Both the position numbers and the translations under genes were made by a program. Below the pieces are notes generated by a model, which made no database searches, was not told the DNA's origin, and saw only the letters and a program-made list of their open reading frames with translations. DNA of 64,000 nucleotides. Origin: Escherichia phage ECML-183-2. Location: sequence record OL631481.1. The stretch is one strand, 5' to 3'. Positions 1,340 to 64,000 of the stretch are shown here, piece by piece; the stretch's first letter is position 1; the number at the start of each line of letters is the position of its first letter.

Positions 1340-1738
1340 TTATTTTTTACGAAGGGAACGTTTTTTAGCTGGAGTGTCTACCGCTTCTACTTTTAAAACT
1401 TCTTCTTTGATTTTTACAGGTGCATAGTCTTCGTAACTTACAAGATAGTAACCCATGTGTTCTTCACTTGCAAAAGGATGCACAAGAATACCTGTTTCTT
1501 CTCTCAAACGCGTGAGGAAGTGAATGAAGTTTCCACCTAATGCAATACGACCATCTTTCAGATAGAAAGACATTGGTGGCGCAGATACTAATGTTTTATC
1601 AGCATCGATCAGTGGTGAAAGCGATTCGAAATCACGAATCATTTCGTGATAACTAAAGTAACGTTTCAATTCTGGGTTTGACATATCAATCTCCTCGTTG
1701 TAAACTCTTATTGTAAACAGAAAAGGCTCGCCCATCAC
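1340..1738 (-). CDS. hypothetical protein
   Basis: 132 aa ORF immediately downstream of the capsid gene. Confidence 0.5.
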   Translation of the reverse strand: MMGEPFLFTIRVYNEEIDMSNPELKRYFSYHEMIRDFESLSPLIDADKTLVSAPPMSFYLKDGRIALGGNFIHFLTRLREETGILVHPFASEEHMGYYLVSYEDYAPVKIKEEVLKVEAVDTPAKKRSLRKK

Positions 1739-1768
1739 GGACGAGCCTCTAATCTTAACAGAGTTCTA

Positions 1769-2770: not shown

Positions 2771-2791
2771 TATATTAATCTCCTATTAAAA

Positions 2792-3190
2792 TTAAGAAGT
2801 GAAAACGACTTTTTCGGTCAGTTTCAGATCATGTGTTTCCAGTGCTGCTACGCCAGCGTCATCTACCAGGGAGCCATCTTTGTAGTATACTGCAAAGCGG
2901 TTCAGAGTAAGATCACGTACGCCAACAACTGCGGTGAAAGTGTCACCTACTGCTACATCGTCAATACCGAACAGAGCATCAGTCCAAATCAGAACTTTAG
3001 CAGCATCGGCAGCTTCAGCTTTAGCAGCTTCAGTGTTGTCAGCTTTCAGGATAGAACCAATTTTCATGGTTGCTGTTTTAACCAGGTTAACTTCACGTAC
3101 ACAGTGTCCAAGGTCAGAGCTAAACACTCCACCCAGAACCAGGTGTCCGAATTCCTGGCGAGAGTTAGATAAAGTAATTCCTTTAGCCAT
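2792..3190 (-). CDS. hypothetical capsid-associated protein (possible decoration protein)
   Basis: 132 aa ORF between scaffold and capsid genes. Confidence 0.4.
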   Translation of the reverse strand: MAKGITLSNSRQEFGHLVLGGVFSSDLGHCVREVNLVKTATMKIGSILKADNTEAAKAEAADAAKVLIWTDALFGIDDVAVGDTFTAVVGVRDLTLNRFAVYYKDGSLVDDAGVAALETHDLKLTEKVVFTS

Positions 3191-6466: not shown

Positions 6467-6535
6467 TTGTTCCTCCAGTCAGGTATAAAATCGTTAAGGC
6501 AAGGCTGTATTATATACAACCTCACCTATCTAGTT

Positions 6536-6564
6536 ATAATACACTTTAAAGTGACTTTTGTCAA
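6536..6564 (-). promoter_or_regulatory. sigma70-like promoter (TTGACA-N17-TATTAT) upstream of portal gene
   Basis: minus-strand TTGACA 6564-6559, 17 nt spacer, TATTAT 6541-6536. Confidence 0.45.
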
Positions 6565-6567
6565 CAA

Positions 6568-8643
6568 TTATCTTTTACGGACACTATACGGTTGGTGAAA
6601 TCCGCTGTTCATTCTACTGTATCCTGTAGGAGCATTTGTTGTTGCAGGGATAGCTACTGCTTTGAAAGTATTCTCTTTTGACAGAGTATTGAAACAAGAA
6701 GCAGCAGCATCGGGAATGTCATCTTTAATAGTGGCTGTAGATCTTTCACCATTGAAAGATTCCAATTCTTTATAAAAGTGGGTTAAAGTTTCCACATTAG
6801 GGAAAGAATCTTCAACAATATAAACAAAACCGTTTTGACACGCACTACTAAAAGGCATAAAACGCTGAAGCTTTTTCTTGTTGCCTGGCATAGCATCTGG
6901 TTTAACAACAAAACCCTCTAGAATAAGTTTCTTTGCAGACTCTGTATATTCTATTGTCCCAGCCCCAGATGGGTCTTTAGGAAGAACTACTGTAACTTCT
7001 GGTCCATCAATCTTACATTGATTTAGAATCAGGTTATCCCTTTCCCCAGGTAATCTTCGAAACCTTCCGAAAATTTTACTTTTCTCATCCACAGCATCAT
7101 AATCATAGTCACCAAAGATGTAGATATTACCATCTTGGTCTTTACCCATTTTGACAGATGTTGTATAGTCTGGATAACGATAAGTTTCTGTAGGAACTGA
7201 AACAGCTTTATCCCATGCTCGCATTAGTTTAAGATTATTAGGAACATCTTTATAAGATATCTTATGCAACCATTCACGTTGGAAGAAAGACTCTTTCTGT
7301 ATACGTGCAAACCAACAGCCGTCCAAGAGTTGTGCTCTTTTGATTGCTGTTTGTGATTTAAGCTGTGCTAAATAATTAGGGTTAAGCCTAATCAATTCTG
7401 GGTTATCAAATATTGTCCCACCGATAAATACGAAAGTTTGTGGTTCAATAACAACTGTCTCCCCTGTATTAGGGTTTTCCATGAAACAGTTTTCTGGATA
7501 TTTTTCTTTCAGTTCTTCAGGTGTGTCAGCAAAAACAGGTTCATCATTAACAATGATGAAATATTTTTGTTTACCACACATATCTTCTCTAGGATAACCA
7601 CCCTCATCGAGATAAGGTAATACCCAATTCAAAACCCAACTATCTGCATCGGGGTTACATGTGCACAACATGAAGCTTGTTTCTGATTCTGAACGCATAC
7701 GTCCCAGAAGATAGAGCATTTCATATTGCGTGAAGTGGGTTAACTCGTCAAAACCTACCATTGAATACTGTGTACCCTGATGGTTTGTTTCTGCTGTTAC
7801 GTTATCATTTTCCAAATGGTCAAATTTGAGGGTTCCACCACCAGTTGCTTCAAAAATGATATCCATTGTACTTTCTTTTACGTGCGGTTGTAAAGGAAGA
7901 TACAAACGTTTTGCTTCTGTAAACAGACCACCTGGTTTACGGTGAGCAGTGGTGTTCTTACGGAAAAGTATTCCACCAAACAAAGGGTCTTTGTAGGCGT
8001 ATTTTAAAGCTTTCAGCAATAGCAGACGAGACTTGCCGCTATTCCCAGTAACGAAGCAGTGATCGCCACGTCTAAAGACAATATAGCTGCTTGGAGTCTC
8101 AAAACAATATTTCTTATCATCTGTTGAAATAACCTCGTGTATTTTTAAGTAAGTGCTCTTTTTACCAGGTATGTTAAAAGGAACACGTTTACCGAATGGA
8201 TTTTCTACATAACCTTGCAGGGGTTTTCCTATTTGCTGTAATGCAATAAGATCTCCTACAAGAATCTCGAAATGTTTCTTTGATTTCTTTTTCTTATAGA
8301 ATACAAAACGGTGTTCCATACTAAGTTCTTGGAATAATCCTACACCATTTGTTATTCTGTATAGATTATCTCCATTTAAATCGTATTCTACAAAATAAGG
8401 TGTTACCAATTCTAAACGCTTATTCTTAGGATTGTATTGGTAAATATCCTCTCCCGAATATTCACTAATCTGTCTCCAACCATCTTTTGTAAGATATTCC
8501 GTTTCAGCAGAAACACATCCAGCGGCACCACCATAAATCATAACTTCTGGCATTAAATCCATTGCAAGAGTCTGTTTACCTGGTTGAGCCTTTACTTCAA
8601 TATCTACTCCAGCTAAACTACCTGCTGCCTTTTTCTTTGCCAC
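6568..8643 (-). CDS. terL: terminase large subunit, interrupted by an in-frame mini-intein
   Basis: 691 aa; Walker B-like MVGFDELTHF; CTCNP coupling motif; C-terminal nuclease-like region; Walker A split as YGGAAG / intein / SGKSRLLL. Confidence 0.85.
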   Translation of the reverse strand: MAKKKAAGSLAGVDIEVKAQPGKQTLAMDLMPEVMIYGGAAGCVSAETEYLTKDGWRQISEYSGEDIYQYNPKNKRLELVTPYFVEYDLNGDNLYRITNGVGLFQELSMEHRFVFYKKKKSKKHFEILVGDLIALQQIGKPLQGYVENPFGKRVPFNIPGKKSTYLKIHEVISTDDKKYCFETPSSYIVFRRGDHCFVTGNSGKSRLLLLKALKYAYKDPLFGGILFRKNTTAHRKPGGLFTEAKRLYLPLQPHVKESTMDIIFEATGGGTLKFDHLENDNVTAETNHQGTQYSMVGFDELTHFTQYEMLYLLGRMRSESETSFMLCTCNPDADSWVLNWVLPYLDEGGYPREDMCGKQKYFIIVNDEPVFADTPEELKEKYPENCFMENPNTGETVVIEPQTFVFIGGTIFDNPELIRLNPNYLAQLKSQTAIKRAQLLDGCWFARIQKESFFQREWLHKISYKDVPNNLKLMRAWDKAVSVPTETYRYPDYTTSVKMGKDQDGNIYIFGDYDYDAVDEKSKIFGRFRRLPGERDNLILNQCKIDGPEVTVVLPKDPSGAGTIEYTESAKKLILEGFVVKPDAMPGNKKKLQRFMPFSSACQNGFVYIVEDSFPNVETLTHFYKELESFNGERSTATIKDDIPDAAASCFNTLSKENTFKAVAIPATTNAPTGYSRMNSGFHQPYSVRKR
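8041..8517 (-). mobile_element. mini-intein (about 159 aa) inserted in the TerL P-loop
   Basis: starts CVSAETEYLTKDG (intein block A), internal SMEHRFVF (block B-like), ends ...HCFVTGN followed by Ser; splicing would give GAAGSGKS. Confidence 0.7.
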
Positions 8644-10145: not shown

Positions 10146-10224
10146 TGGAGGCGGGAATTGGATTTGAACCAATGATCTCCAGCATATGAAACTGGCGAGG
10201 ACGACCAGACTCCTCTATCCCGCT
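10146..10224 (-). tRNA. tRNA-Met(CAT)
   Basis: hand-folded cloverleaf: anticodon loop TTCATAT, T-arm ATTGG-TTCAAAT-CCAAT, encoded CCA; position 1-72 is an A-C mismatch. Confidence 0.6.
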
Positions 10225-10301
10225 ATTATGTATCCCGTGCTGGATTCGAACCAGCATCACAAAAATTGTGGATCTCTTATCCTGTAAGTCTAACGGGAAA
10301 C

Positions 10302-10375
10302 TGGTTGTTTCGACAAGAATCGAACTTGTGTCTCACGATTATCAGTCGTGGGTTCTACCATTGAACTACGAAACA
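10302..10375 (-). tRNA. tRNA-Ile(GAT)
   Basis: acceptor TGTTTCG/CGAAACA, anticodon stem CACGA/TCGTG with loop CTGATAA, T-loop TTCGATT, encoded CCA. Confidence 0.75.
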
Positions 10376-10438
10376 TTTAAAAGAATATCTCACGTCTGAT
10401 ACAGACTAACCTTTTGTCTGACGCATGAAATATTTAAT

Positions 10439-10515
10439 TGGTCGGAATTGCAGGATTCGAACCTGCGACCCTACGCTCCCAAAGCGTATGCTCTACCAAA
10501 CTGAGCTAAATTCCG
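10439..10515 (-). tRNA. tRNA-Pro(TGG)
   Basis: acceptor CGGAATT/AATTCCG, D-arm GCTC-AGTTTGGTA-GAGC, anticodon loop TTTGGGA, T-arm GCAGG-TTCGAAT-CCTGC, CCA. Confidence 0.8.
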
Positions 10516-10520
10516 TTATA

Positions 10521-10596
10521 TGGCTGGTCTGTCTGGATTTGAACCAAACCTACGACAGTCAAAGTGTCGTGTGCTACCGGACTACACTACAAACCA
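10521..10596 (-). tRNA. tRNA-Gln(TTG)
   Basis: acceptor TGGTTTG/CAGACCA, anticodon stem CGACA/TGTCG with loop CTTTGAC, T-loop TTCAAAT, CCA. Confidence 0.8.
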
Positions 10597-10694
10597 ATAA
10601 ATCATTTAATGAAGGGCAACCAGAAGAAGTGTGAGAGAAGGAGAAAACCATGAGTAAAAGAGAAAGTTTTCTGGCAACCCTTTATTAAATAATT

Positions 10695-10771
10695 TGGAGC
10701 GTTATATCGGATTCGAACCGATGCCACCGACTTGGAAGGACGGGATGCTGAACCGCTAACACTAATAACGC
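10695..10771 (-). tRNA. tRNA-Gly(TCC)
   Basis: acceptor GCGTTAT/ATAACGC, anticodon loop CTTCCAA (one stem mismatch), T-arm ATCGG-TTCGAAT-CCGAT, CCA. Confidence 0.65.
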
Positions 10772-10784
10772 TTTGTATATATTT

Positions 10785-10814
10785 ACTATACTACATTTTA
10801 CTATCGAATGTCAA
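10785..10814 (-). promoter_or_regulatory. sigma70-like promoter (TTGACA-N18-TATAGT) inside the tRNA cluster
   Basis: minus-strand TTGACA 10814-10809, 18 nt spacer, TATAGT 10790-10785; predicted start a few nt upstream of the tRNA-Gly 5' end. Confidence 0.5.
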
Positions 10815-11089
10815 TAGTTATTTAATAGGTGGGACAGTGACGAGTATCCCTTTGGGTGACTAGCCCTACGTTCGGTAAGCTAACTTAAAATAATACAAAA
10901 CCAAAGTCAAATATTATTCTTCGTTGCTGTCGATGGGAGAGCCGCTTCTTCTTTTGCCCCATCCAACCCTACTCCGGTCAAGTTTCAGGTAACTCTTTGT
11001 GTGATCAACACAATACTAAGAACACTGTCTTTCGAACAGACCTTGTGCACAGGATACGACGATCAATCACAGTGCCCTTAATGTTGTGT

Positions 11090-11164
11090 TGGTGCTCCCA
11101 CTCTGAATCGAACAGAGATCCACGGATTACAAAACCGTTGTAATAGCCATTATACTATAGGAGC
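11090..11164 (-). tRNA. tRNA-Thr(TGT)
   Basis: acceptor GCTCCTA/TGGGAGC, anticodon loop TTTGTAA, T-arm CTCTG-TTCGATT-CAGAG, CCA. Confidence 0.65.
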
Positions 11165-11255
11165 AAAGCTGGGACTCGGCAGGATTCGATACCTGCAATT
11201 CCAGAAGCCTCTTGGCGACTGGGGGGTTTACCTTAACTCTACAAGTCCATAATTC

Positions 11256-11341
11256 TGGCGATGAGTATAGGATTTGAACCTATATCGTTCTTTCGAACAC
11301 GGATTAACAGTCCGCCGCTTAAACCATTCAGCCAACTCATC
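11256..11341 (-). tRNA. tRNA with anticodon GTT (Asn-type) but type-II architecture
   Basis: acceptor GATGAGT/ACTCATC, anticodon stem GCGGA/TCCGT with loop CTGTTAA, extra variable hairpin GTTC-GAAA-GAAC, T-arm ATAGG-TTCAAAT-CCTAT, discriminator G, CCA. Confidence 0.5.
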
Positions 11342-11347
11342 TTAATT

Positions 11348-11435
11348 TGGTGGTGAGTGATGGAGTCGAACCACCCGAATCGCAATGATAACAGATTTAC
11401 AGTCTGCCCCGCTACCCCTACGGAATTAACTCACC
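11348..11435 (-). tRNA. tRNA-Tyr(GTA)
   Basis: acceptor GGTGAGT/ACTCACC, anticodon arm CAGA-CTGTAAA-TCTG, long variable arm, discriminator A, CCA. Confidence 0.8.
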
Positions 11436-11565
11436 TAAATGCTAATATTTAAATTCTTTTTAAAATAGCCAGTGTTCACACCACTAACTATGAGGTATCG
11501 GTAAAGTGGTTACCGCCACTTGCCGAAGATTTACTCTGCTAAAGTAAGCTATATTAAAAAGAACT

Positions 11566-11651
11566 TGGCGGTAGATGTAGGACTCGAACCTACACGCCGT
11601 TTCCGACTACAGTTTAGCAAACTGTCGTGGCTACCATTTCACCAATCTACC
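11566..11651 (-). tRNA. tRNA-Ser(GCT)
   Basis: acceptor GGTAGAT/ATCTACC, anticodon arm ACAGT-TTGCTAA-ACTGT, long variable arm, T-arm GTAGG-TTCGAGT-CCTAC, discriminator G, CCA. Confidence 0.8.
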
Positions 11652-11655
11652 AATC

Positions 11656-11746
11656 TGGCGGAAGGAGGGAGAGTCGAACTCCCAAGGCTCTTTCAAGCTC
11701 GGCGGTTTTCAAGACCGTTTTCGTCGCCACGTCGATTTGCCCTTCC
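11656..11746 (-). tRNA. tRNA-Ser(TGA)
   Basis: acceptor GGAAGGG/TCCTTCC, anticodon region ACGGTCTTGAAAACCGCC, long variable arm, T-arm GGGAG-TTCGACT-CTCCC, CCA. Confidence 0.8.
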
Positions 11747-11754
11747 ATACTTAT

Positions 11755-11784
11755 AATCTAACATAAAATAATGTTAGTTGTCAA
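11755..11784 (-). promoter_or_regulatory. sigma70-like promoter directly upstream of tRNA-Ser(TGA)
   Basis: minus-strand TTGACA 11784-11779 with a weak -10 about 17-18 nt downstream; tRNA 5' end at 11746. Confidence 0.35.
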
Positions 11785-11980
11785 TAGTTTTTTAAAACAT
11801 TTTACCATGAATGGTGACTCCACCAACCCCCGTTCTCAGCGAACGGTGCTCTTCGAGCATTTATGTCTTCTAATATAACCGTGGCCTTTGTTTATAATGT
11901 CTGACATACTTACCTCATTCTCTGCCACCATGATCAGTAGTGGGTTCAAATCACTTGAGCTAATTCATGTTAAAATGTTC

Positions 11981-12055
11981 TGGTGTCTTTACAAGGAATC
12001 GAACCTTGACTAAGAGTTTAGAAGACTCCTGTGCTATCCATTACACCATAAAGAC
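11981..12055 (-). tRNA. tRNA-Arg(TCT)
   Basis: acceptor GTCTTTA/TAAAGAC, D-arm GTGT-AATGGATA-GCAC, anticodon loop CTTCTAA, T-arm CAAGG-TTCGATT-CCTTG, CCA. Confidence 0.75.
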
Positions 12056-12057
12056 GT

Positions 12058-12132
12058 TGGTGGCCCTGGCTGGTTTCGATCCAGCTACCTATCGGTTATG
12101 AGCCGACAGCTCTCCCATTGAGCTACAGGGCC
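12058..12132 (-). tRNA. tRNA with CAT anticodon (Ile2-lysidine type or elongator Met)
   Basis: acceptor GGCCCTG/CAGGGCC, D-arm GCTC-AATGGGA-GAGC, anticodon loop CTCATAA, T-arm GCTGG-ATCGAAA-CCAGC, CCA; overall resembles bacterial tRNA-Ile2. Confidence 0.7.
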
Positions 12133-49152: not shown

Positions 49153-49167
49153 TATTAGGAGAATAAA

Positions 49168-49440
49168 ATGACTGAAGAAATCCGTGATTACTACCTTGCA
49201 CATTACGTTTACTACTTTGCCAATGCTACACAAAAAGGGGAAGGTAATCTTTACTTGGCAACAGGACATGGAACAGGCGTTAGGAAATCCAATATTGATA
49301 ATGCCTTGGCTCAAGTGGCTGCGGGGCTAGAAGATAAACTTCAAACACCTGTAGTTGTAGTGATGCAAAATATAAGTTACCTAGCAAGTTGTACTGAAAC
49401 CGAATTTAACGCGTCTGAGACGCAATCTAACGAAGAATAA
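49168..49440 (+). CDS. hypothetical protein
   Basis: 90 aa; last plus-strand gene. Confidence 0.45.
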   Translation: MTEEIRDYYLAHYVYYFANATQKGEGNLYLATGHGTGVRKSNIDNALAQVAAGLEDKLQTPVVVVMQNISYLASCTETEFNASETQSNEE

Positions 49441-49446
49441 AACAAA

Positions 49447-49475
49447 GGCACCCAAGTGGGTGCCTTTTCTATTTT
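49447..49475 (+). terminator. intrinsic terminator closing the plus-strand block
   Basis: GGCACCC-AAGT-GGGTGCC followed by TTTTCTATTTT. Confidence 0.65.
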
Positions 49476-49509
49476 AGAGCGTCTCTGTTCGATTTAGGTG
49501 GGTTCTAGC

Positions 49510-49740
49510 TTACTTGTGTAGTGCTCTCTCGTATAACTCAATAATTAATTCATCTTCTACTGTAATACGCGCCATTTGATCCGTCTTAAGGATTGTTGGT
49601 TGGTAGTGGTGCATTTCACTATTGATACTACAATCCCATTCGTCATAACCTAAATACTCTCCTACATGGACCTTAACCATAAAGGGAAACGGGTTATCTA
49701 CCAAAAATGCCATACAACCTTCTTCGATTTTATTTAACAC
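49510..49740 (-). CDS. hypothetical protein
   Basis: 76 aa; GTG start after AGGAGG; lies between convergent terminators. Confidence 0.35.
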   Translation of the reverse strand: MLNKIEEGCMAFLVDNPFPFMVKVHVGEYLGYDEWDCSINSEMHHYQPTILKTDQMARITVEDELIIELYERALHK

Positions 49741-53585: not shown

Positions 53586-53720
53586 TTACTTGTTTAAAGT
53601 ATCTCTTACTTGTTCTGCTTGACGTTTAGTAATAAAAGTCCCAACCGAAACGTTAAACTCATTGACTACAGAGAACGATCCATCACGGTTCTCACGAATA
53701 TTAAACAATTTCTTACTCAT
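53586..53720 (-). CDS. small protein (44 aa)
   Basis: strong RBS AAGGAGGTAGA before ATG; below ORF-track cutoff. Confidence 0.35.
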   Translation of the reverse strand: MSKKLFNIRENRDGSFSVVNEFNVSVGTFITKRQAEQVRDTLNK

Positions 53721-54288
53721 TTCTACCTCCTTCAATGCTTTGTGCCGTACCATCCCAAGCCATTAGAATGTTTTCCAATAGTTCACGAGGCTCTTTAAAC
53801 CAAACTTCCATTTCATCAAGGATCTCGTCCGTGTCGTAAGTATAACCTGGAACACCAAGTTCACATTTCTTAAGATAGCTTTCTAACCAGCGGTGATAAT
53901 TCTTAACCCATTCATACTGTGCTACCTTTTCTTTTACCCAATCTACACGATCTTTATCATAATGTTGAGTGCCAAGGAAAAAACCATTGTGGAAACTTTC
54001 CTCACCGAAAGGATAAATTGGATCTAAACCATCTTCTTCAAATAACATTTTTAATCTGTTTGATGTAGATTTCTTAGTTTCTGAATTGTAGTTTGTGGTT
54101 ATAAGCCAATCTTCCAAACAACGACACAAACCTTGACGAGAATCCCAAGGAAAAACACAATCTCCGACAGGAGCTTGTTTCGCCCATTTCAACCAGCCTT
54201 TAAAAAAGTTATACAGTATGTAGTCTTCAGTGTAATACATTATCTCCTCCTTTACGTATACAATAACACCCCGAAGAACGGGGTGCAA
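53713..54288 (-). CDS. paralog family member (WL...GLC...PF...R-x-WVK signature), long form
   Basis: shares the conserved motif set with 55180-55578, 58065-58391, 58824-59150, 62097-62411. Confidence 0.5.
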   Translation of the reverse strand: MHPVLRGVIVYVKEEIMYYTEDYILYNFFKGWLKWAKQAPVGDCVFPWDSRQGLCRCLEDWLITTNYNSETKKSTSNRLKMLFEEDGLDPIYPFGEESFHNGFFLGTQHYDKDRVDWVKEKVAQYEWVKNYHRWLESYLKKCELGVPGYTYDTDEILDEMEVWFKEPRELLENILMAWDGTAQSIEGGRNE

Positions 54289-54291
54289 CTG

Positions 54292-54903
54292 TTATTTAAT
54301 CTGTTTGAAAATTTCGTTTGGAACGGTACCGTTTAAAATACCTTCTACGATCTCTTGTGCAGATGTGTAAGAGAGTCCAAAAGAAGCTACGCCTAAAATT
54401 GCCTCCTTCAAAGGATCTGGCAGGGGTTCAAAATTACCTGCAACAAAGCCACCTGCACAAGCAGCGCCTTCATCATCCCAGAAAACAACTGCTACATCGT
54501 TACCATGCGAAGTTGTGCGATGTGCAATAACTTCAACTTCGGTGCCTTCTTTAGGAACAGAATAAGAACTGTCCCAAGAATATCTTTCCAAGTCAGGAAC
54601 AAAGATAACCTTTTCACCTACTGGCGGCAGTTCACAACGATAATACCAAGAATTTTTTTCGTTCATTGCTTTATTTTCCTCCACGTCTTCAAAAGTAACG
54701 ATCCAATCGTAGCCGTAAGAAAACGGATATTTTAGATCTAAAGAATAAGTTTGACCTAGATCGTCCTCAACAAGAACCATCCTGTCAAAGTTTGCGATGT
54801 TAGGATTATGTTTAATGACAGGGTATGTTTCCCCTACAGTAAATTGTCCTAAATGGTAAAGTTCATCTCTCCAAGTAATTTGGACATAAGTGCATTGAAT
54901 CAT
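54292..54903 (-). CDS. hypothetical protein
   Basis: 203 aa. Confidence 0.5.
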   Translation of the reverse strand: MIQCTYVQITWRDELYHLGQFTVGETYPVIKHNPNIANFDRMVLVEDDLGQTYSLDLKYPFSYGYDWIVTFEDVEENKAMNEKNSWYYRCELPPVGEKVIFVPDLERYSWDSSYSVPKEGTEVEVIAHRTTSHGNDVAVVFWDDEGAACAGGFVAGNFEPLPDPLKEAILGVASFGLSYTSAQEIVEGILNGTVPNEIFKQIK

Positions 54904-54907
54904 AAAA

Positions 54908-55180
54908 TCACCCCCAAGAAATATTTATATATCTTACAATGTTTGCACTGTCTAAAGCCATGTTTGCACCACACCCACGCTCGCGCCAGTAACTAACAAT
55001 ACCTTCACAGATACTCTCTTGTATCTTCTTATCACTTGGCATTTCTAGTATAAGACTTGGGTTGTGGATGTTTATGTTATAATATCCTTCCTCTGCGGCT
55101 TGAGCTACCAATTTACTTACTTTTTCAAAGTACGGGGAATTAGTGGCATCTGCTATTGTTTTTAAGGTTTGTCTATCCAT
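54908..55180 (-). CDS. hypothetical protein
   Basis: 90 aa. Confidence 0.45.
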   Translation of the reverse strand: MDRQTLKTIADATNSPYFEKVSKLVAQAAEEGYYNINIHNPSLILEMPSDKKIQESICEGIVSYWRERGCGANMALDSANIVRYINISWG

Positions 55181-55578
55181 TATTCTGCCTCATCATAGAA
55201 GAAATCCAACTCTTGTTCCAGTTGTTTAACTTGATCCTTAACCCACTGTACACGTTTTTCATTAAACATGCAACGTTTTTCCTTACACTCTTGCTCAAAA
55301 GATTTTGCTGTGTTAAACGGGAAAGTTGTATCTAAACCAGCATTTTCAAAACTGGCTAATTGCATACCATAAACAGAATATGCTAAAGAATGATCGGCTC
55401 GAAATTCATCACTTATATACATACGTAGACCTCGGCATAAGCCAACATCAGCGTAACCACTTTCTCTTGGAAAGAGACGGAGGTGTTCTAACCAATTATT
55501 ATAGAAATCTAAAAGAATCCTCTTACACTTCAAATCGATTGTCATAAAAAGTTTCTCCTTCATCGAACAAGTTGGCAA
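55180..55578 (-). CDS. paralog family member (WL...GLC...PF...R-x-WVK signature)
   Basis: FYNNWLEHL ... GLCRGL ... FPFN ... KRVQWVKDQ. Confidence 0.5.
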   Translation of the reverse strand: MPTCSMKEKLFMTIDLKCKRILLDFYNNWLEHLRLFPRESGYADVGLCRGLRMYISDEFRADHSLAYSVYGMQLASFENAGLDTTFPFNTAKSFEQECKEKRCMFNEKRVQWVKDQVKQLEQELDFFYDEAE

Positions 55579-55945
55579 GATTGTTCACGGCAATCTGGGT
55601 GGAAAGAAGACAACTGTTTGCAGACACATAAGCACGAGCTATTTTGTAAACATAGGCTTTCGTATTACAATTGTCTAGGATCGGAAGACTTTCGTCGATA
55701 GCATCTATAACACTAAACATCACATCTAAAACTTTAATTGTAAGTATTGTATCTATATCTTCGTAACCTTTTTCAATCCGACCTGAATAGAAAGCATAGT
55801 CCTCAACAGTTCGTCGTTTAAACTGGCGCATAAAATCGGAACCATCTGTAGTAGAATTGAACAAATTTTCAAAAAATACCTCCCATCCGGCAAAAAGGGC
55901 TGACAGCATGATTAAGTGATCTACAGATTCATTTTCTTGTTTCAT
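55523..55945 (-). CDS. hypothetical protein
   Basis: 140 aa; start may be an internal Met. Confidence 0.4.
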   Translation of the reverse strand: MKQENESVDHLIMLSALFAGWEVFFENLFNSTTDGSDFMRQFKRRTVEDYAFYSGRIEKGYEDIDTILTIKVLDVMFSVIDAIDESLPILDNCNTKAYVYKIARAYVSANSCLLSTQIAVNNLANLFDEGETFYDNRFEV

Positions 55946-55953
55946 ATCCTCTC

Positions 55954-56631
55954 CTATTTAATGTTCAATCTAGCACACAAGCGAGAAACAGTTTTAGCAT
56001 CCCACTTACCACCACGTGCTGTTGCGATTTTCTTACTATTGAATTTTTCAGCAATAGTTTTGTAAGGTGTATTTAAATCTCTAAGGATCTCCAAGCGTTC
56101 ACGAAATGTCTCTGCAAAAGCGTCTGCTTTAACAGAATTGTATTCCATTTTTCCTTTTCTACGTGCAGCGGCAGTTTTAGGATTAGCACTGCCTAACAAA
56201 ACACCTTTGCTTTTTGCTACAGCAAGACCCTTTTTAATACGATCAGCAATACCTCTAACTTCTTGTTCAGCCAGAACAGACAGAAGCTGTATAACCATTT
56301 TATCTGCGTCTGGCATGATGGCTATCTTAACATCGATCATTTCTAGAAGAGTTGCTACGGAGGCGTTGTTACGACCCAAGCGGTCAACTTTAGCTACCAA
56401 TAAAGTTGCTCCGGTAGCTTTACACATTTCAACCGCTTTAACCAGTTCCTTACGTTGCTTCCAATCGCCCTTACCAGAATAGTATTCAGAAAATTGACCA
56501 ATAACTTCAGCATCAGGCACAGAGTCTAAGAAGTAACGGATATCGTTCTCTTGGCTCTCCATACCATATTGTGCCTCACCTTTTTTCTGTTTAGAAAGAC
56601 GACTGTAAACAACAAACTTTTTCATAACCAC
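55954..56631 (-). CDS. small serine recombinase (resolvase/invertase family)
   Basis: N-terminal VVYSRLS (catalytic Ser context), VAKVDRLGRN, GIADRIKKG; C-terminal HTH-like region. Confidence 0.65.
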   Translation of the reverse strand: MVMKKFVVYSRLSKQKKGEAQYGMESQENDIRYFLDSVPDAEVIGQFSEYYSGKGDWKQRKELVKAVEMCKATGATLLVAKVDRLGRNNASVATLLEMIDVKIAIMPDADKMVIQLLSVLAEQEVRGIADRIKKGLAVAKSKGVLLGSANPKTAAARRKGKMEYNSVKADAFAETFRERLEILRDLNTPYKTIAEKFNSKKIATARGGKWDAKTVSRLCARLNIK

Positions 56632-56695
56632 TCCTAAACCATTGCTGTATTCTCACTTTACAAAACGAATAAACACTTGTCAAGGTATTTATTAT

Positions 56696-56908
56696 TTACA
56701 GCCATTCTACTTTTAAGCAGTATTCTTCGACATGTTGTTTACGCTTGTTTTTGTCTATGTAAGTGTATTCAACAAATGTCCCAAGATAATCCTTGTCCAC
56801 ATTGTGTTGGCTATTAATTGGACATTTAGTACGACAAACCCGTTGCCACTGACGAAGAATTACGGCTTTGTTTTTAGGATCAAAGGGATGAGGGTAATGT
56901 GCCTTCAT
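56696..56908 (-). CDS. hypothetical protein
   Basis: 70 aa. Confidence 0.4.
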   Translation of the reverse strand: MKAHYPHPFDPKNKAVILRQWQRVCRTKCPINSQHNVDKDYLGTFVEYTYIDKNKRKQHVEEYCLKVEWL

Positions 56909-57232
56909 TCACGCCTCCTGTTTTAGTCGAAAAATATTTTGAATAACGAGAGATGTATAGTTATCACTTAGTCCCATAAGTTCTACTTCCAAGTTTCGAA
57001 TATCTTCCACCGTAGGAGGATATGTTGGTAAAAATGCTTGAGCATTGCCAGATCCAACCTCATTGCTGTAAGCAGTTGTAAAATTGTAAGATACAAAACA
57101 TGAAACACCTTTTTGTCGGTACCCGATTAATCGACGAATACACCAGATAAGAGCCAAACCTATGAGAACACCTCCTAAACCAGCTAACAAGAAGGATAAG
57201 TTCATAATAGCTTCGTTAACAACTGCTTGCAT
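56909..57232 (-). CDS. membrane protein
   Basis: 107 aa, N-terminal TM helix. Confidence 0.45.
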   Translation of the reverse strand: MQAVVNEAIMNLSFLLAGLGGVLIGLALIWCIRRLIGYRQKGVSCFVSYNFTTAYSNEVGSGNAQAFLPTYPPTVEDIRNLEVELMGLSDNYTSLVIQNIFRLKQEA

Positions 57233-57242
57233 TCTTTTCTCC

Positions 57243-57542
57243 TTAGTTATGTAAACCCAAATGTGCTACAACTTCTCTACGATAAGATAACTGCATAGCG
57301 ATTTTATAGCCAGGATGAAAACCATTTACATCAATGTCATCAAACCAAACCTCAAACGAACCGTGCTTAAGAGTCATTAAGTTGATATACCATTCGATAA
57401 TATAATGATCGTCAGCAATACCTTCGATGTAAAATTCTCGGCAACAGTGAGATAGGTCTTCACTTGTTTCACGTTTCCAGTCTTTGATAGCACCCTTCTC
57501 TTTGGCTTTATTCAGAATCTTGATCAGGTCTTCAACTTGCAT
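57243..57542 (-). CDS. hypothetical protein
   Basis: 99 aa. Confidence 0.45.
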   Translation of the reverse strand: MQVEDLIKILNKAKEKGAIKDWKRETSEDLSHCCREFYIEGIADDHYIIEWYINLMTLKHGSFEVWFDDIDVNGFHPGYKIAMQLSYRREVVAHLGLHN

Positions 57543-57596
57543 GTTTCTCTCCTTTTGTGGTTAATCTTTATATTTTAAATATTGTACCGTCTTCTG

Positions 57597-58010
57597 TCAA
57601 ATAGCCTCTTTCTCTAAAACAACTCTTTGGATCACAACATCTTCAATGTTTGCCAAACAATGACCCAAAGTCAATCCTGCCTTGAAAGGTGCTTGTAGTT
57701 TGGATTCGGCTTCTACGCGAACAGAATGTTCCGCTCCGCACATGGTGTAATCTACACGGTAAACATTTAAACCTAAGAACATAGATTCTTCTTCTTCACA
57801 ACAAGGATTGAGTTCAGCCCATTCCCAAGCATCTCCTTCTAAAGCAAATGGAGTGTTGTAATTGAAGAAAGTGCAGCGCGGATATTCCCCGTTGAAAGAA
57901 TCTTTCAACAGGATATATTTCTTACCATTTGCATGGAAGAGTTCTCCTTTGATAACCTTACCTACAAGGATATCACTGTTAGTGGAACGGGTGCAAATAA
58001 ATTTTTTCAT
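57597..58010 (-). CDS. hypothetical protein
   Basis: 137 aa. Confidence 0.45.
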   Translation of the reverse strand: MKKFICTRSTNSDILVGKVIKGELFHANGKKYILLKDSFNGEYPRCTFFNYNTPFALEGDAWEWAELNPCCEEEESMFLGLNVYRVDYTMCGAEHSVRVEAESKLQAPFKAGLTLGHCLANIEDVVIQRVVLEKEAI

Positions 58011-58064
58011 GATTTTCTCCTCTCTGTTTCGATGAGATGATTATGACAAAGACAGATCCTTCTG

Positions 58065-58391
58065 TCAACCAATTATTTCTTCTGCTACACGTTCTTTTAC
58101 CCAGTTCACACGATCCACATTCAAATGACAACGGCTTTTTTCCGCTTCTAAGGTGTACTTTCCAAAATTACTGTTGAAAGGCAACACCATAACCAAACCT
58201 TTGAGGTAGAACTGCTCATGCATTTCATCCAGTACAGGTTCGTATCGTTCGCTTTCTCCTATGTCGTAAAAATCATAGAGGTTCGTGCACAAACCTGTGC
58301 AACGGGTGAACGGTTCACCTTCAGGAGCACCAGCTTCCAACCATGCCAAATACGTGCGGTAAAATGTTAATAGTTCTTCGCTCATTTCCAC
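58065..58391 (-). CDS. paralog family member (WL...GLC...PF...R-x-WVK signature)
   Basis: YRTYLAWLEAGAPEGEPF ... GLCTNL ... HLNVDRVNWVKER. Confidence 0.5.
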   Translation of the reverse strand: MEMSEELLTFYRTYLAWLEAGAPEGEPFTRCTGLCTNLYDFYDIGESERYEPVLDEMHEQFYLKGLVMVLPFNSNFGKYTLEAEKSRCHLNVDRVNWVKERVAEEIIG

Positions 58392-58594
58392 TCTCCTTCG
58401 TGATAGTAAACCTCAAAAGAATAGTAAGTGAACATGCTCATTGTAACACCTGCCATTTCTGGATCAAAGGGGGTGTTGTTATACATGTCAACTACTGCCT
58501 GACCCGCTGCTTTGGCATGTGCTGCTGAATCACAGGCACAAACATCTTTCTCCCACGGAAACTTGCCATCATACTTAAGACGGACAATCCACAT
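58382..58594 (-). CDS. hypothetical protein
   Basis: 70 aa. Confidence 0.4.
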   Translation of the reverse strand: MWIVRLKYDGKFPWEKDVCACDSAAHAKAAGQAVVDMYNNTPFDPEMAGVTMSMFTYYSFEVYYHEGEWK

Positions 58595-58596
58595 GC

Positions 58597-58824
58597 TTAT
58601 TCCTCCATCTCAAACCATTCAGGGAACACTTTATGGAAGACACGGGTTGTTTCCAAAAGGAATTCCAATTCTTTTTCCAGATCTGCGTTCCAATCGTGCA
58701 CTTTAACATTGATTGCCAATGCACTTGCACGGCGACTTAATTCTTGACAGATTGGATCACGCAGAACTATTGAGTCGTAAAACTGACAAACAGCTTCAAG
58801 TTCATACCAGTTATAATCCGACAT
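58597..58824 (-). CDS. hypothetical protein
   Basis: 75 aa. Confidence 0.4.
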   Translation of the reverse strand: MSDYNWYELEAVCQFYDSIVLRDPICQELSRRASALAINVKVHDWNADLEKELEFLLETTRVFHKVFPEWFEMEE

Positions 58825-59150
58825 TATTCATCCTCCTCTGCAATACGATCTCTTACCCAATTAATTCTGTCCACGTTCAGGTGACAGGCATCTGCATCTG
58901 ACTCTAAGACATATGCATCGTAGTTCTCATTGAAAGGGAGTTCTTGATTCAACACTTTATGGTAAAACTGTGCGTGCATTTCATCTGACAAGGTTGTTAT
59001 AATGGGGTTGTAATTACCTCTGTGCACATAATCGAACAAGTTGGCACACAAACCACAATCCCGCCGAAAAGGTTTACCATCAGGAGCACCAACATCAATC
59101 CATGCTAGATAAATTTTATAAAACTCCATCAACCTTGCGCTTGTTTTCAT
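58824..59150 (-). CDS. paralog family member (WL...GLC...PF...R-x-WVK signature)
   Basis: YKIYLAWIDVGAPDGKPF ... GLCANL ... HLNVDRINWVRDR. Confidence 0.5.
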   Translation of the reverse strand: MKTSARLMEFYKIYLAWIDVGAPDGKPFRRDCGLCANLFDYVHRGNYNPIITTLSDEMHAQFYHKVLNQELPFNENYDAYVLESDADACHLNVDRINWVRDRIAEEDE

Positions 59151-59388
59151 TTAGCCACCTCGTTAGTTTTTCTTGCTCTTTGTTTGCGCGTTCTAAGCTT
59201 CTGAACTTTAAACAGAGGGAACGAGAATCCCTACCCATGCACAAGCTTTCATCTAAGCTGTGCTCCCCAACCAACCAAAGAGAGTATGTTTGAACATCTA
59301 ACCCATAGTTTCTGTCTTTCCATAATCTCACCCCAAGAACATCAAAAGGAGCTTCCGCGACTAAAGAAAGGAACCGATCTTTATTCAT
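59116..59388 (-). CDS. hypothetical protein
   Basis: 90 aa. Confidence 0.4.
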   Translation of the reverse strand: MNKDRFLSLVAEAPFDVLGVRLWKDRNYGLDVQTYSLWLVGEHSLDESLCMGRDSRSLCLKFRSLERANKEQEKLTRWLNENKRKVDGVL

Positions 59389-59450
59389 ATTACACCACCT
59401 TACTCACGTTGATAATGTATGTATACCATACATAAAATAAATGTCAAGGC

Positions 59451-59651
59451 TTATCGACACAGATAGTTGTAACGATCTGCTTTATCCTCTGCTTCAGCAA
59501 AGTCAGCAATCAAGGAAGTTTTAAGTTCTTCCAACTCTTTCACCCAAGAGTCGTAATCGTTCTGTGTTTCTCCAATAGTTTGGAGAAAACAATCGTCGTA
59601 GCCAATAGACATGGCTAACTCGATAATACGTTCCAGTTTTTCTTCCATCAC
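59451..59651 (-). CDS. hypothetical protein
   Basis: 66 aa. Confidence 0.4.
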   Translation of the reverse strand: MMEEKLERIIELAMSIGYDDCFLQTIGETQNDYDSWVKELEELKTSLIADFAEAEDKADRYNYLCR

Positions 59652-60010
59652 TTCTCTCCTTCTACAGACTTCTGTTTAACATAGAAGTAAGCACCACGAG
59701 CAAGATACAAATCATGTTCAATATCGCTCACAGGAAAACCATTTGGATTTTTAAAACCATCTTCTACAGCCAAAATGAGAGATCGTAAACTGATAGCTAA
59801 CAACTCCATTTGATCTTGTAGTTTTCTATTTTCTGCGTAAAGGTTTTTGCATTTTTGTTCTGCATTTTTCCATTGTTCTAATGCATGATCATAGCGGTGC
59901 ATAAGAATAGCTTTTTCTTGTTCACGCTTAAAAGTTTCTTCACAAATGAAACCTGTGCCTAAACCAGTTTCTTCGTCTTTGACAAACACTTCAACAAAAT
60001 CTTTAGACAT
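59648..60010 (-). CDS. hypothetical protein
   Basis: start moved to internal ATG with AGGAG RBS, which removes overlap with the upstream gene. Confidence 0.45.
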   Translation of the reverse strand: MSKDFVEVFVKDEETGLGTGFICEETFKREQEKAILMHRYDHALEQWKNAEQKCKNLYAENRKLQDQMELLAISLRSLILAVEDGFKNPNGFPVSDIEHDLYLARGAYFYVKQKSVEGEK

Positions 60011-60011
60011 A

Positions 60012-60302
60012 TTATCTCCTATTTGCTTTCGGATACTCCCAACCCTCTGGGAGATCTTCTTTACACATCCACTCAAAAGGCCAGCGACAATAACTGTGCC
60101 ACTTTCCATCGAGATACAAACAATCTTCATCTACTGGTCCACAAGGGTTGATAACTACAACACACCCTTTCGCTCGCCAATATTGAACTATTTCAGGGTA
60201 AAAACAAGAAACGTCGGTCCACTCCCAAATACGTTCATCATTCAGACGGTAGGCTGCTGGTAATGTTTCTTTCATAGTATTAAACCTGAGCCAAGGAGTC
60301 AC
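60012..60302 (-). CDS. hypothetical Cys/Trp-rich protein
   Basis: 96 aa. Confidence 0.45.
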   Translation of the reverse strand: MTPWLRFNTMKETLPAAYRLNDERIWEWTDVSCFYPEIVQYWRAKGCVVVINPCGPVDEDCLYLDGKWHSYCRWPFEWMCKEDLPEGWEYPKANRR

Positions 60303-60516
60303 GCCAATTACGGCTATCTCCTTCTCCTAAATACCAGTAATCCGCAGCATTAAAAACTTGATAAGGAATACGCCACGCATAAGCGAAATCTGGAATCTCC
60401 GGTTTATGACTGTAACCATAACGCTCGCCACTCGAATCTGTTGCAATATAATTAACAAATTCAGGAACCTCTAAAATTTCACCTTGATACTCTACACGCT
60501 TGAAGCCATCTTCCAC
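60280..60516 (-). CDS. hypothetical protein
   Basis: 78 aa. Confidence 0.4.
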   Translation of the reverse strand: MEDGFKRVEYQGEILEVPEFVNYIATDSSGERYGYSHKPEIPDFAYAWRIPYQVFNAADYWYLGEGDSRNWRDSLAQV

Positions 60517-60736
60517 TTGTTCCTCCCCCTTCTACCAGAAGGGCAAGAAGTTTGATGTGAGGGCAAGTGAAATCTTGTCCTGGATAACGTGAACGGATAT
60601 CAGTTAACAATGCGATCACAGCATCCGATAACTCTTTATAATCCTCATATCTTACAAATGTGCCTTCTGTCGGATCATCAGGACACAAACGCCAAACATC
60701 GTTGCAGTTTACAGCATAATGTCGCACTTTAGTCAT
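60479..60736 (-). CDS. hypothetical protein
   Basis: 85 aa. Confidence 0.4.
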   Translation of the reverse strand: MTKVRHYAVNCNDVWRLCPDDPTEGTFVRYEDYKELSDAVIALLTDIRSRYPGQDFTCPHIKLLALLVEGGGTSGRWLQACRVSR

Positions 60737-60745
60737 AAATACCCC

Positions 60746-61144
60746 TTATCGTTGCGTACAATCAGCTTCTAGAGTAAGAACATTCGTTATTGTTTTATCA
60801 TTTTTTAGAAATGCAAACCAAGCCAAAGTGTCTCGATACTCTGTGCGCATCATTACTACTTCAGTAGTGCCAATAAATTGTTGTGAACCGTACATAGCAC
60901 TACCATCTTTACTTTTTTCTCCTGTGTATTGCAGAATGCCACTCATCAAAGCACCGCCTGAATTTTTAAGGATAAAGGAGTTATCTTTATTAATGACAAC
61001 AGAAGCCATTTTCTTAGGACCAGAAATCACTTCACCTTTCAGATTTTTAACAACCACATCTGACACACACTCATAAACTTGAGACGCACTTGCTGTTCCA
61101 AGTGATGCAATGAGTAACAACAAACCTACGATGATCTTTTTCAT
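60746..61144 (-). CDS. secreted protein
   Basis: N-terminal signal peptide MKKIIVGLLLLIASLGTASAS. Confidence 0.5.
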   Translation of the reverse strand: MKKIIVGLLLLIASLGTASASQVYECVSDVVVKNLKGEVISGPKKMASVVINKDNSFILKNSGGALMSGILQYTGEKSKDGSAMYGSQQFIGTTEVVMMRTEYRDTLAWFAFLKNDKTITNVLTLEADCTQR

Positions 61145-61240
61145 ATAAACTCTCCTCTTTGTTTACCCGATGCGCCCCCTGTTGGGCGGAAAGGGTTGTA
61201 CGCAAAATTTTTAGCTCCAATCGTCGGGTGTCCCGACTCC

Positions 61241-61447
61241 TTACGCTTTTAATGTTTTAACAGAATGACAAGCTTTGCAAACAATAACCGGAACAAGTTC
61301 ATCTCCATTATCCGCATAAATCACTGTTTTCTTCATTCTGCCACCACATGAACAATACTCTGTATGATCCGCTGGAATATTAAATATTCCGTAATCACTT
61401 TCATACTGTTTCTTACATATGGACACTGCTTTCGTAAAACAAGACAT
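61241..61447 (-). CDS. small zinc-ribbon protein
   Basis: CSCGG ... CKAC. Confidence 0.4.
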   Translation of the reverse strand: MSCFTKAVSICKKQYESDYGIFNIPADHTEYCSCGGRMKKTVIYADNGDELVPVIVCKACHSVKTLKA

Positions 61448-61449
61448 GC

Positions 61450-61671
61450 CTACTCCGCAAGAACCTTCACTTCGTCAGAGAAGAATACGTAATCACAACC
61501 TTCCCAAACATCTTCTTCAAACCACTCCCATCCCTCGACTTTGGACATTTCTTCTATCGTAACAAAGAATGTTGTCATATCCTCACTAACAAGATGTGCT
61601 TCAACAACAAAAGGAATCTGAACATTCTCAAAACCAACATAACCCAATACATCACAAACTCTAATTTTCAT
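61450..61671 (-). CDS. hypothetical protein
   Basis: 73 aa. Confidence 0.4.
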   Translation of the reverse strand: MKIRVCDVLGYVGFENVQIPFVVEAHLVSEDMTTFFVTIEEMSKVEGWEWFEEDVWEGCDYVFFSDEVKVLAE

Positions 61672-61672
61672 A

Positions 61673-61873
61673 TTATGCTCCTCTGTAGATTATGTTGGTG
61701 CGTTCACACTCTGCTACCAGCAAGCGATTAGCAATGTTATCCATAGGAACATCAATCTCTACACTCCAGGCATTGATACACACTTCTTCAATCTTTGCTC
61801 CCAACGTTTGTGCGATCAGAGCAACAGCCCCAGCATATTCAAGTTTAATCTCAATTACCATTTTGCACCTCAA
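61673..61873 (-). CDS. hypothetical protein
   Basis: 66 aa. Confidence 0.4.
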   Translation of the reverse strand: MRCKMVIEIKLEYAGAVALIAQTLGAKIEEVCINAWSVEIDVPMDNIANRLLVAECERTNIIYRGA

Positions 61874-61875
61874 GG

Positions 61876-62142
61876 TTATTTGTCTTGCTTGTATCTTACA
61901 AGGCGATCACACTCCAGGTCAAGAAATTTCTCCGCATTTCGTTCATGTTTGAGCACAATACATTGTTCTTTCCAGTCTGTAGCTCTTTGCTGCGCTGCTC
62001 CTGGGTCAAAATCCCAAAGCCATGCCGCGAAAAGAACAACTACCCAAAGCCATACCGCGAAAAGAACAACTATAACAATTACTAAGAAACTAAACACTAT
62101 TGGCATTGCACATCCTCCTGTGTAGCATGATCTTTTACCCAT
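61876..62142 (-). CDS. membrane protein
   Basis: 88 aa with hydrophobic stretch IVFSFLVIVIVVLFAVWLWVVVLFAAWLW. Confidence 0.4.
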   Translation of the reverse strand: MGKRSCYTGGCAMPIVFSFLVIVIVVLFAVWLWVVVLFAAWLWDFDPGAAQQRATDWKEQCIVLKHERNAEKFLDLECDRLVRYKQDK

Positions 62143-62411
62143 TTTATACGGGCAGCATTCAAATGCAATAGCCCGTTTCTTTGTGCAAAATCATATTTAA
62201 ACCAGTCTCCGTCATCAAACGGGTATTCTTCAGACAACCCTGCTTCTCGAAATTGCATTTGCATTTCATAATTTAGATCATCGTAACCACCAGTCCAAAG
62301 GTAGAGGCAACTGCACAAACCTTTATCGTGCCAGAAAGGATTATTATCTGGAGCACCAGCTAACAGCCAATTATGATAGGCTTGATAAAATTCTTTAAGT
62401 TCTTCTGACAT
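62097..62411 (-). CDS. paralog family member (WL...GLC...PF...R-x-WVK signature)
   Basis: YQAYHNWLLAGAPDNNPF ... GLCSCL ... HLNAARIKWVKDH. Confidence 0.5.
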   Translation of the reverse strand: MSEELKEFYQAYHNWLLAGAPDNNPFWHDKGLCSCLYLWTGGYDDLNYEMQMQFREAGLSEEYPFDDGDWFKYDFAQRNGLLHLNAARIKWVKDHATQEDVQCQ

Positions 62412-63828: not shown

Positions 63829-64000
63829 TTATTTTATTACCGCAGTAGGCTCAATACTAACAACACCAATACGCTCATAGATCTCAACAGTAGAAATTGG
63901 ATATTCTTCCTTCATCTTTTTTGCTTCCGTGGCGATCTCTTCATAAGAATGTGACACCAATTGGACATTCATGCCTTTAACAATAGCATAGTGTTTAAAA
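63829..64000 (-). CDS. hypothetical protein, C-terminal part (gene begins beyond window end)
   Basis: frame checked open from 63999 down to tandem stops at 63839-63834. Confidence 0.35.
   Translation of the reverse strand, partial: FKHYAIVKGMNVQLVSHSYEEIATEAKKMKEEYPISTVEIYERIGVVSIEPTAVIK

Follow-up and report, generated by a model that had tools for sequence, protein, structure and literature searches.

Small early phage proteins and N4 gp3

Lytic phages produce small acidic inhibitors early in infection, such as Ocr (gp0.3), gp0.4 and gp2 of T7, gp8 of N4, anti-CRISPR (Acr) proteins and other anti-defence proteins. The described protein closest to the genes treated here is gp3 of phage N4 (ABK54374.1), which consists of 104 amino acids (aa). 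It is encoded in the early region transcribed by the virion RNA polymerase (vRNAP), between gp2 and gp15/16, the latter being genes of RNA polymerase II (RNAPII). Five genes of Escherichia phage ECML-183-2 (sequence record OL631481.1), designated copies A to E, are intact members of the same family, which is already catalogued and functionally dark. They are located on the minus strand of a stretch of 64,000 nucleotides (nt), referred to below as the window.

N4 gp3 is a true homolog of the window copies, with 32% identity to copy D at an E-value of 7e-8 (tblastn, N4 positions 1226–1525). A profile of the window copies and their relatives matches it with 63.8 bits over profile positions 3–104. 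N4 gp3 has the same length as the window copies and shares their GLC, PF and HLN..R..W motifs; unlike them, it is single-copy and lacks the GAP..PF loop consensus and the Glu/Gln pair of helix 3. It is likewise without an assigned function, and the relationship names the family and explains nothing. As a whole, the family resembles the small acidic early inhibitors in size, acidity, early-region location, accessory presence or absence, and the lack of an enzymatic signature. Unlike families of the ArdA/Ocr or Acr type, it is almost absent from plasmids and from the bacterial genomes scanned.

The five paralogs of the window

The initial annotation had described a five-copy paralogous family, and all five open reading frames (ORFs) were confirmed on the minus strand with the ends assigned there. 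The description is borne out by PHROG 2510, which matches copies A to E with E-values of 2.4e-27, 4.1e-26, 3.8e-31, 3e-31 and 8e-29, respectively, over profile positions of about 4–123. When a profile built from the five copies was run against the 654 six-frame ORFs of the window, the five were recovered at E-values between 2e-51 and 4e-39. The next-best ORF scored 0.5, and no sixth copy is present within the 64 kb. In pairwise BLASTP comparisons, copies C and D share 51% identity, C or D and E share 38–39%, and A and B each share about 26–31% with all others. No second paralog family was detected among the window ORFs by all-versus-all BLASTP.

Copy A, as read here, extends from 53713 to 54240; its family domain, the ortholog of phAPEC8_0054 (112 aa, approximately 53905–54240), continues in frame into the next gene. 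Copy B (55180–55545, 121 aa) is the ortholog of phAPEC8_0051 and corresponds to a 366-nt coding sequence (CDS) in relatives, while copy C (58065–58385, 106 aa) is the ortholog of phAPEC8_0044 and corresponds to a 321-nt CDS. Copy D (58824–59150, 108 aa), the ortholog of phAPEC8_0041, was chosen for modelling; its exact protein is on record as WCD43455.1 from Escherichia phage ECML-183-2. Copy E (62097–62411, 104 aa) is the ortholog of phAPEC8_0030, and its exact sequence is present on 318 contigs. The window copies are acidic, with isoelectric points (pI) of 4.5–5.1 and net charges of -5 to -10.

Multiple alignment and profile search, two of the checks proposed with the initial annotation, place the motifs in register with 15 invariant columns and establish homology far beyond chance. 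The ordered signature that had been read from the five sequences is largely correct. GLCxxL and R[IV]xWV[KR][DE] occur in all five copies, and GAPxGxPF is limited, as described, to three of them (C, D and E). The HLN element is likewise limited to C, D and E, being replaced by HYD in A and MFN in B, and PF is followed by Asn or Asp in four of the five copies, with PFG in A.

Gene starts and the copy A fusion

Three of the gene models required correction. The TTG or GTG starts originally assigned to copies A, B and C are over-extended, as relatives annotate the ATG codons equivalent to 54240, 55545 and 58385. A Shine-Dalgarno-like sequence precedes all five ATG starts, for instance AAGGAGGAG ahead of the copy A start at 54240 and GAAGGAGA ahead of copy B, and none is found before the TTG starts of A and B.

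The long C-terminal extension that had been attributed to copy A is not part of the family. PHROG 2510 covers aa 20–136 of the 191-aa ORF, and residues 127–191 match PHROG 19887 with an E-value of 1.4e-44. In relatives, the family member is annotated as a 339-nt gene, and the PHROG 19887 homolog (53713–53912, minus strand) is a separate gene overlapping its end; here it is readable only as the extension of A. This arrangement of a 112-aa A gene with an overlapping PHROG 19887 gene was found in all seven relatives checked, namely SF1-1, PNJ1809-36, phAPEC8, Schickermooser, nepoznato, tuntematon and EF1-1. The second gene encodes 67 aa in most of them and is shorter in Schickermooser; a separate 204-nt CDS is annotated in the other six. 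The two frames are fused because a G-run at 53907–53909 (minus strand) is one base shorter than that of the relatives, reading GGG on the coding strand (CAGTATGAATGGGTTAAGAA) and GGGG in seven of seven relatives. The fused protein is absent from a collection of 15 billion sequences.

A comparable difference occurs elsewhere in the block. The overlapping minus-strand ORFs at 60479–60736 and 60280–60516 together correspond to one gene of 148–152 aa in relatives (PHROG 23941), which is split here by a C-run near 60529 with one extra C relative to SF1-1 and PNJ1809-36. Given this second homopolymer difference, an assembly error is a reasonable explanation for both frameshifts. The copy A fusion is either a sequencing error or a private mutation, and not a feature of the family.

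Family size and distribution

In an exhaustive profile search of 1.84 billion representatives, 2081 members passed a threshold of E<=0.001, and 1303 of them also passed E<=1e-10; the 2081 are cluster representatives at 50% identity. Many are tandem proteins with two domains, and one has three. When homologs were sought again, by a word-indexed search with a profile of 88 sequences, only 15 close relatives and no fused domains were returned. The sole apparent fusion, P0025, combines the family domain with a response-regulator domain; it stems from a 1.1-kb contig and was treated as a chimera. Besides PHROG 2510, the family is matched more weakly by PHROGs 6418, 27059 and 2176, and the nepoznato and tuntematon orthologs were tagged by their annotators as pVOG VOG7392. 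These PHROG and pVOG clusters are labelled 'unknown function'.

When copy D was compared by tblastn with 50,697 phage records, 264 records were matched at 641 places. The hosts of the carrier phages include Escherichia, Klebsiella, Rhizobium, Achromobacter, Erwinia, Salmonella, Ralstonia, Pseudomonas and Delftia. Phages of Burkholderia and Pectobacterium were added when viral models were searched by structure, with weaker matches in Acinetobacter phages; all of these proteins are named 'uncharacterized'. The carriers span N4-like, T7-like, T1-like, rV5-like and phi92-like virulent phages of alpha-, beta- and gammaproteobacteria, and the family is nearly confined to virulent phages. Among 72,556 plasmids, a single one carries the family domain, and it is itself a phage-plasmid. 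Pattern-limited scans of 185,579 species-representative genomes found no member in one scan and one 3.8-kb contig of a metagenome-assembled genome in the other. A pattern scan of IMG/VR gave eight loci, too few for neighbour association.

The plasmid match is located at 49153–49632 of E. coli NZ_CP148392.1 and encodes a 159-aa protein carrying the family domain. This replicon of 92.8 kb is non-mobilizable and phage-plasmid-like, and encodes Phd/Doc, a PAPS reductase-family protein and DUF968. It represents a rare non-virulent carrier.

In podoviruses, the family gene is found on the plus strand within the first 0.4–6.6 kb, as in N4, SPSP, JWDelta, Axy10/22/24, Frozen, RG-2014, RSB1, phiAp1, JG068, RHEph09 and RHph_N37. 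The JG068 member is gp5, one of 11 small genes ahead of the primase. On metagenomic phage contigs, the family gene is part of extended runs of small genes that share one strand and carry no annotation. Homologs fall within early regions in all cases in which such regions are defined, both for N4 gp3 and at the left ends of N4-like and T7-like phages.

The gene block and its predicted transcription signals

The 10 kb around the family genes share 96–97% identity with Phapecoctavirus genomes (for example PNJ1809-36, Mt1B1_P17 and phAPEC8). Phapecoctavirus belongs to the Stephanstirmvirinae and comprises E. coli myoviruses with genomes of about 150 kb. The earlier placement of the five genes in a one-strand block of small genes is confirmed: the region from 50 to 64 kb of the window consists of small minus-strand genes, whose functions are 'unknown' by PHROG. 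The remaining block genes tested fall into narrow 'unknown function' PHROGs, the sole exception being a serine recombinase.

Three near-consensus sigma-70-like promoters are predicted on the minus strand, in intergenic gaps of the block. The first (58040–58068, TTGACA-17-CATAAT with TG, 11 of 12 positions matching) starts at the stop codon of copy C and is 96–100% conserved in eight relatives, including those without C. The second (57572–57600, TTGACA-17-TAAAAT, 11 of 12) is situated in the next intergenic gap; it was recovered in four relatives, and its -35 hexamer or spacer is altered in two. The third (56655–56683, TTGACA-17-TAAAGT, 10 of 12), upstream of the serine-recombinase gene, is 98–100% conserved in seven relatives. 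Furthermore, a terminator scan located a G+C-rich hairpin with a T-rich tail at 54266–54286 (minus strand), between the upstream gene and copy A, where the Schickermooser record also marks a putative terminator. Together, the predicted promoters and terminator suggest transcription by the host polymerase, i.e. early expression. Early timing in ECML-183-2 is likewise suggested by the location of the N4 homolog in an early region.

Copy number and selection among relatives

According to a profile scan of related loci, the number of family copies per locus ranges from four to nine. SF1-1, PNJ1809-36, EF1-1, Schickermooser and nepoznato each have five copies, two Justusliebigviruses have four each, and phiWec179 has nine. 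The phAPEC8 locus contains seven, as it adds the tandem pair 0018/0019, whose equivalents would fall about 1.4–2 kb past base 64000 of the window; relatives carry one or two further copies just past the right end. Copy C is missing from the Schickermooser and nepoznato loci, and no ortholog of copy D was detected in the EF1-1 locus.

The orthologs of copies A to E are intact in every case examined (seven of seven for A), and their identity among Phapecoctaviruses is 90–99%. The ratio of nonsynonymous to synonymous substitution rates (dN/dS) was estimated by the Nei-Gojobori method from the window and six to eight orthologs per gene. It amounts to 0.14 for A, 0.11 for B, 0.28 for C, 0.29 for D and 0.01 for E. 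These values fall inside the range of 0.03–0.40 obtained for 19 neighbouring genes. Neither frameshifts or stop codons in orthologs nor dN/dS values near 1, as expected for pseudogenes, were found. The sole frameshift in the copies is that at the 3' end of A, which fuses the gene to the next one and does not truncate the family domain. By these sequence comparisons, the copies are neither pseudogenes nor in rapid divergence at present; their divergence is old, and selection on them is now purifying.

The earlier interpretation of the family is supported in part, but an origin by repeated, rapidly diverging duplication is not upheld in the form proposed. A neighbour-joining tree of 149 members joins C and D as sisters and unites the 0018/0019-type copies in a clade limited to the Stephanstirmvirinae; A, B and E are as distant from C/D as from homologs in unrelated phages. 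C/D is thus the only clear local pair in the window, and recent local duplication is therefore supported only for this pair and for the tandem group outside the window. Copies A, B and E may be either ancient duplicates or separate acquisitions.

Fold and conserved residues

An AlphaFold2 model of copy D, based on a 17-sequence alignment, consists of five helices, with a predicted local distance difference test score (pLDDT) of 91.4 and a predicted template modelling score (pTM) of 0.84. No relative of the model was found in the PDB by fold. The five copies have no match in Pfam or NCBIfam, and no weak Pfam hit recurs across 88 members; YaeQ, the DUF1730 domain of QueG, LisH and other weak Pfam hits each appear in a single member and were rejected. 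Searched against the PADLOC defence models, none of the five copies gave a hit at E<=1. The tandem two-domain protein P0026 was modelled with AlphaFold2 without an alignment, and the result (pLDDT 39.5) is unusable for the domain-domain interface.

The most conserved positions among the 149 members comprise an aromatic, Gly or Pro core together with a set of polar residues. The conserved core can be written as F-Y-x-x-Y-x-x-W-L, GAP..PF, GLC, EM..QF..AGL, PF and H-L-N-x-x-R-I-x-W-V. Copies A and B and N4 gp3 are without the E/Q pair, and B is also without the His.

Possible functions

A tentative reading, to which we give somewhat less than even confidence, is that the five genes encode early host-directed, stand-alone binding proteins that serve takeover or counter-defence and have paralog-specific targets. 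The host RNA polymerase would transcribe the block early during infection, and each copy would form a single compact, acidic five-helix domain of about 100 residues. The proteins would act alone as stoichiometric binders of host components, resulting in host takeover or in neutralisation of a host response. The scaffold would be formed by the conserved residues, and target specificity, distinct for each paralog, by the variable surfaces; the number of copies, as accessory content, would differ from one related phage to another. We infer that the mode of action is protein binding and that the paralogs have diversified in their targets. No neighbouring gene is itself duplicated, and there is therefore no conserved partner.

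Several observations weigh against this reading. Neither Pfam nor the PDB reveals sequence or fold similarity to characterised inhibitors (such as Ocr, ArdA/ArdB, Acr, Acb, Tad and Gad). The literature search gave no function for N4 gp3, for phAPEC8_0030, 0041, 0044, 0051 and 0054, or for the PHROG and pVOG clusters; nor did the literature on Phapecoctavirus paralogs, CRISPRi-ART and phage transposon sequencing (Tn-seq) contain functional data for family members. The block contains 46 sigma-70-like matches, which is not above the 38 +/- 6.3 found in shuffled sequence, and thus only the placement and conservation of the predicted promoters argue for promoter function. In addition, that the family is conserved in phages with widely differing hosts speaks against targets in strain-specific defence systems. 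A conserved target, in the host or in the phage, would account no less well than strain-specific defence for the restriction to virulent phages, the near-absence from plasmids and prophages, and the spread over alpha-, beta- and gammaproteobacteria. Finally, the polar conservation exceeds what a pure scaffold would need and could mark a ligand-binding or active site.

This last point leads to an explanation that we consider unlikely, in which the proteins are small enzymes or small-molecule binders, for instance cofactor-dependent modifiers or sponges that sequester an immune signal of the host, using the conserved polar residues. In the model, such a site would be composed of the Cys at the N-terminus of helix 2, the His-x-Asn-x-x-Arg motif at the start of helix 5 and the Glu/Gln of helix 3. 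Among the 149 members, C37 is conserved in 99%, R95 in 100%, N92 in 90%, Q62 in 89%, H90 in 84% and E58 in 81%, and the model places the Cys in the opening turn of helix 2. The tandem proteins of two and three domains would be compatible with sites that arise between domains, and the wide host range of the carrier phages would fit a universal ligand. Acb2, Tad1 and Tad2 are phage nucleotide-signal sponges and are considered here only for this explanation; like them, the family consists of small phage proteins with conserved polar residues, and its tandem-domain versions hint at oligomeric sites. On the other hand, the His is replaced by Tyr, Phe or Met in about 16% of members, and the E/Q pair is lost in A, B and N4 gp3, which would have to be diverged or inactive versions. 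Several of the 'polar' positions could also plausibly be helix caps or Gly/Pro positions with a structural role. We set aside a papain-like Cys-His-Asn triad, as the fold is all-helical and the His not invariant.

It is less probable still that the proteins are directed at the phage itself and assist its transcription, replication or genome entry as cofactors, much as gp1 and gp2 of N4 serve RNAPII. In N4, the gene is an early-region neighbour of gp1 and gp2, N4-like genera have kept it, and the strong purifying selection, above all on copy E, would be in line with such a role. Nevertheless, the transcription and replication strategies of the carriers (T7-like, N4-like, T1-like, rV5-like and phi92-like) are unrelated, and nucleic-acid binding is unlikely for such acidic proteins. 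The presence or absence of single copies between near-identical phages suggests that they are dispensable, and gp1, gp2, gp15 and gp16 are the only products that N4 genetics assigns to middle transcription.

That most copies are redundant, decaying or functionless remnants of duplication, with at most one of importance, is highly improbable: copy number does differ between relatives and one Justusliebigvirus copy is split (ALITA), whereas the intactness of all five in every ortholog examined and dN/dS values like those of neighbouring genes largely refute it, as do the individual ATG and Shine-Dalgarno site of each copy and the conservation of each lineage at 90–99% among paralogs only 26–51% identical.

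Neighbouring genes and other features of the window

The serine recombinase or DNA invertase within the small-gene block is encoded at 55954–56631 (minus strand; PHROG 125, E-value 2.6e-32). A conserved sigma-70-like promoter lies upstream of the gene, which is truncated in Schickermooser. A 137-aa gene at 57597–58010 (minus strand) matches only the first 74 of the 184 positions of PHROG 37387. This gene has a 184-aa form in phAPEC8, phiWec179 and nepoznato and a 137-aa form in SF1-1, PNJ1809-36 and EF1-1, and its C-terminal half is naturally variable.

The gene at 60746–61144 (minus strand) encodes 132 aa with a signal-peptide-like N-terminus (MKKIIVGLLLLIASLGTASA), and its product is probably a secreted protein or lipoprotein. 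The SF1-1 and EF1-1 records call it 'RNA ligase', apparently a misannotation. The small ORF at 61876–62142 (minus strand) overlaps the 3' end of copy E and corresponds to a 66-aa gene in relatives; its strongly hydrophobic segment (IVFSFLVIVIVVLFAVWLWVVVLFAAWLW) indicates that it probably encodes a small membrane protein.

In all Stephanstirmvirinae loci fetched, about 1.5–1.7 kb without annotated CDS are found directly upstream of the tandem 0018/0019-type copies, past the right end of the window. This stretch covers positions 5512–7022 of the phAPEC8 record, 1612–3157 of locus L004, 1458–2988 of L009, 7746–9474 of L010 and 6069–7823 of L011. Within the window, the sign of the GC skew flips at about 13–14 kb and 49–50 kb, coinciding with switches of the coding strand from minus to plus and back to minus. 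Ten tRNA genes are clustered at 10146–12132 (minus strand), comprising two for Met and one each for Ile, Pro, Gln, Gly, Thr, Asn, Ser and Arg.

Implications for the family

It is possible, if doubtful, that these widespread early proteins of virulent phages of proteobacteria share a previously unseen five-helix fold whose near-invariant Cys/His/Asn/Arg set forms a site binding or modifying something universal in proteobacteria. If this were true, a conserved host machine or a signalling molecule would be the candidates, and the five to nine copies in the Stephanstirmvirinae would represent a diversification of this activity. Functional work on a single member, N4 gp3 for instance, would then provide an annotation for more than 2000 protein clusters.

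The family comprises more than 2000 clusters at 50% identity, yet has no Pfam model, solved structure or assigned function, and coliphages that are therapeutic candidates carry it in five to nine copies. Its domain is compact and confidently modelled, and one member (N4 gp3) belongs to a tractable model phage. A single structure together with a single interaction screen would clear a sizeable piece of phage 'dark matter'. Such work would also tell whether multi-copy early families of this kind act in takeover, in counter-defence or in some other way.

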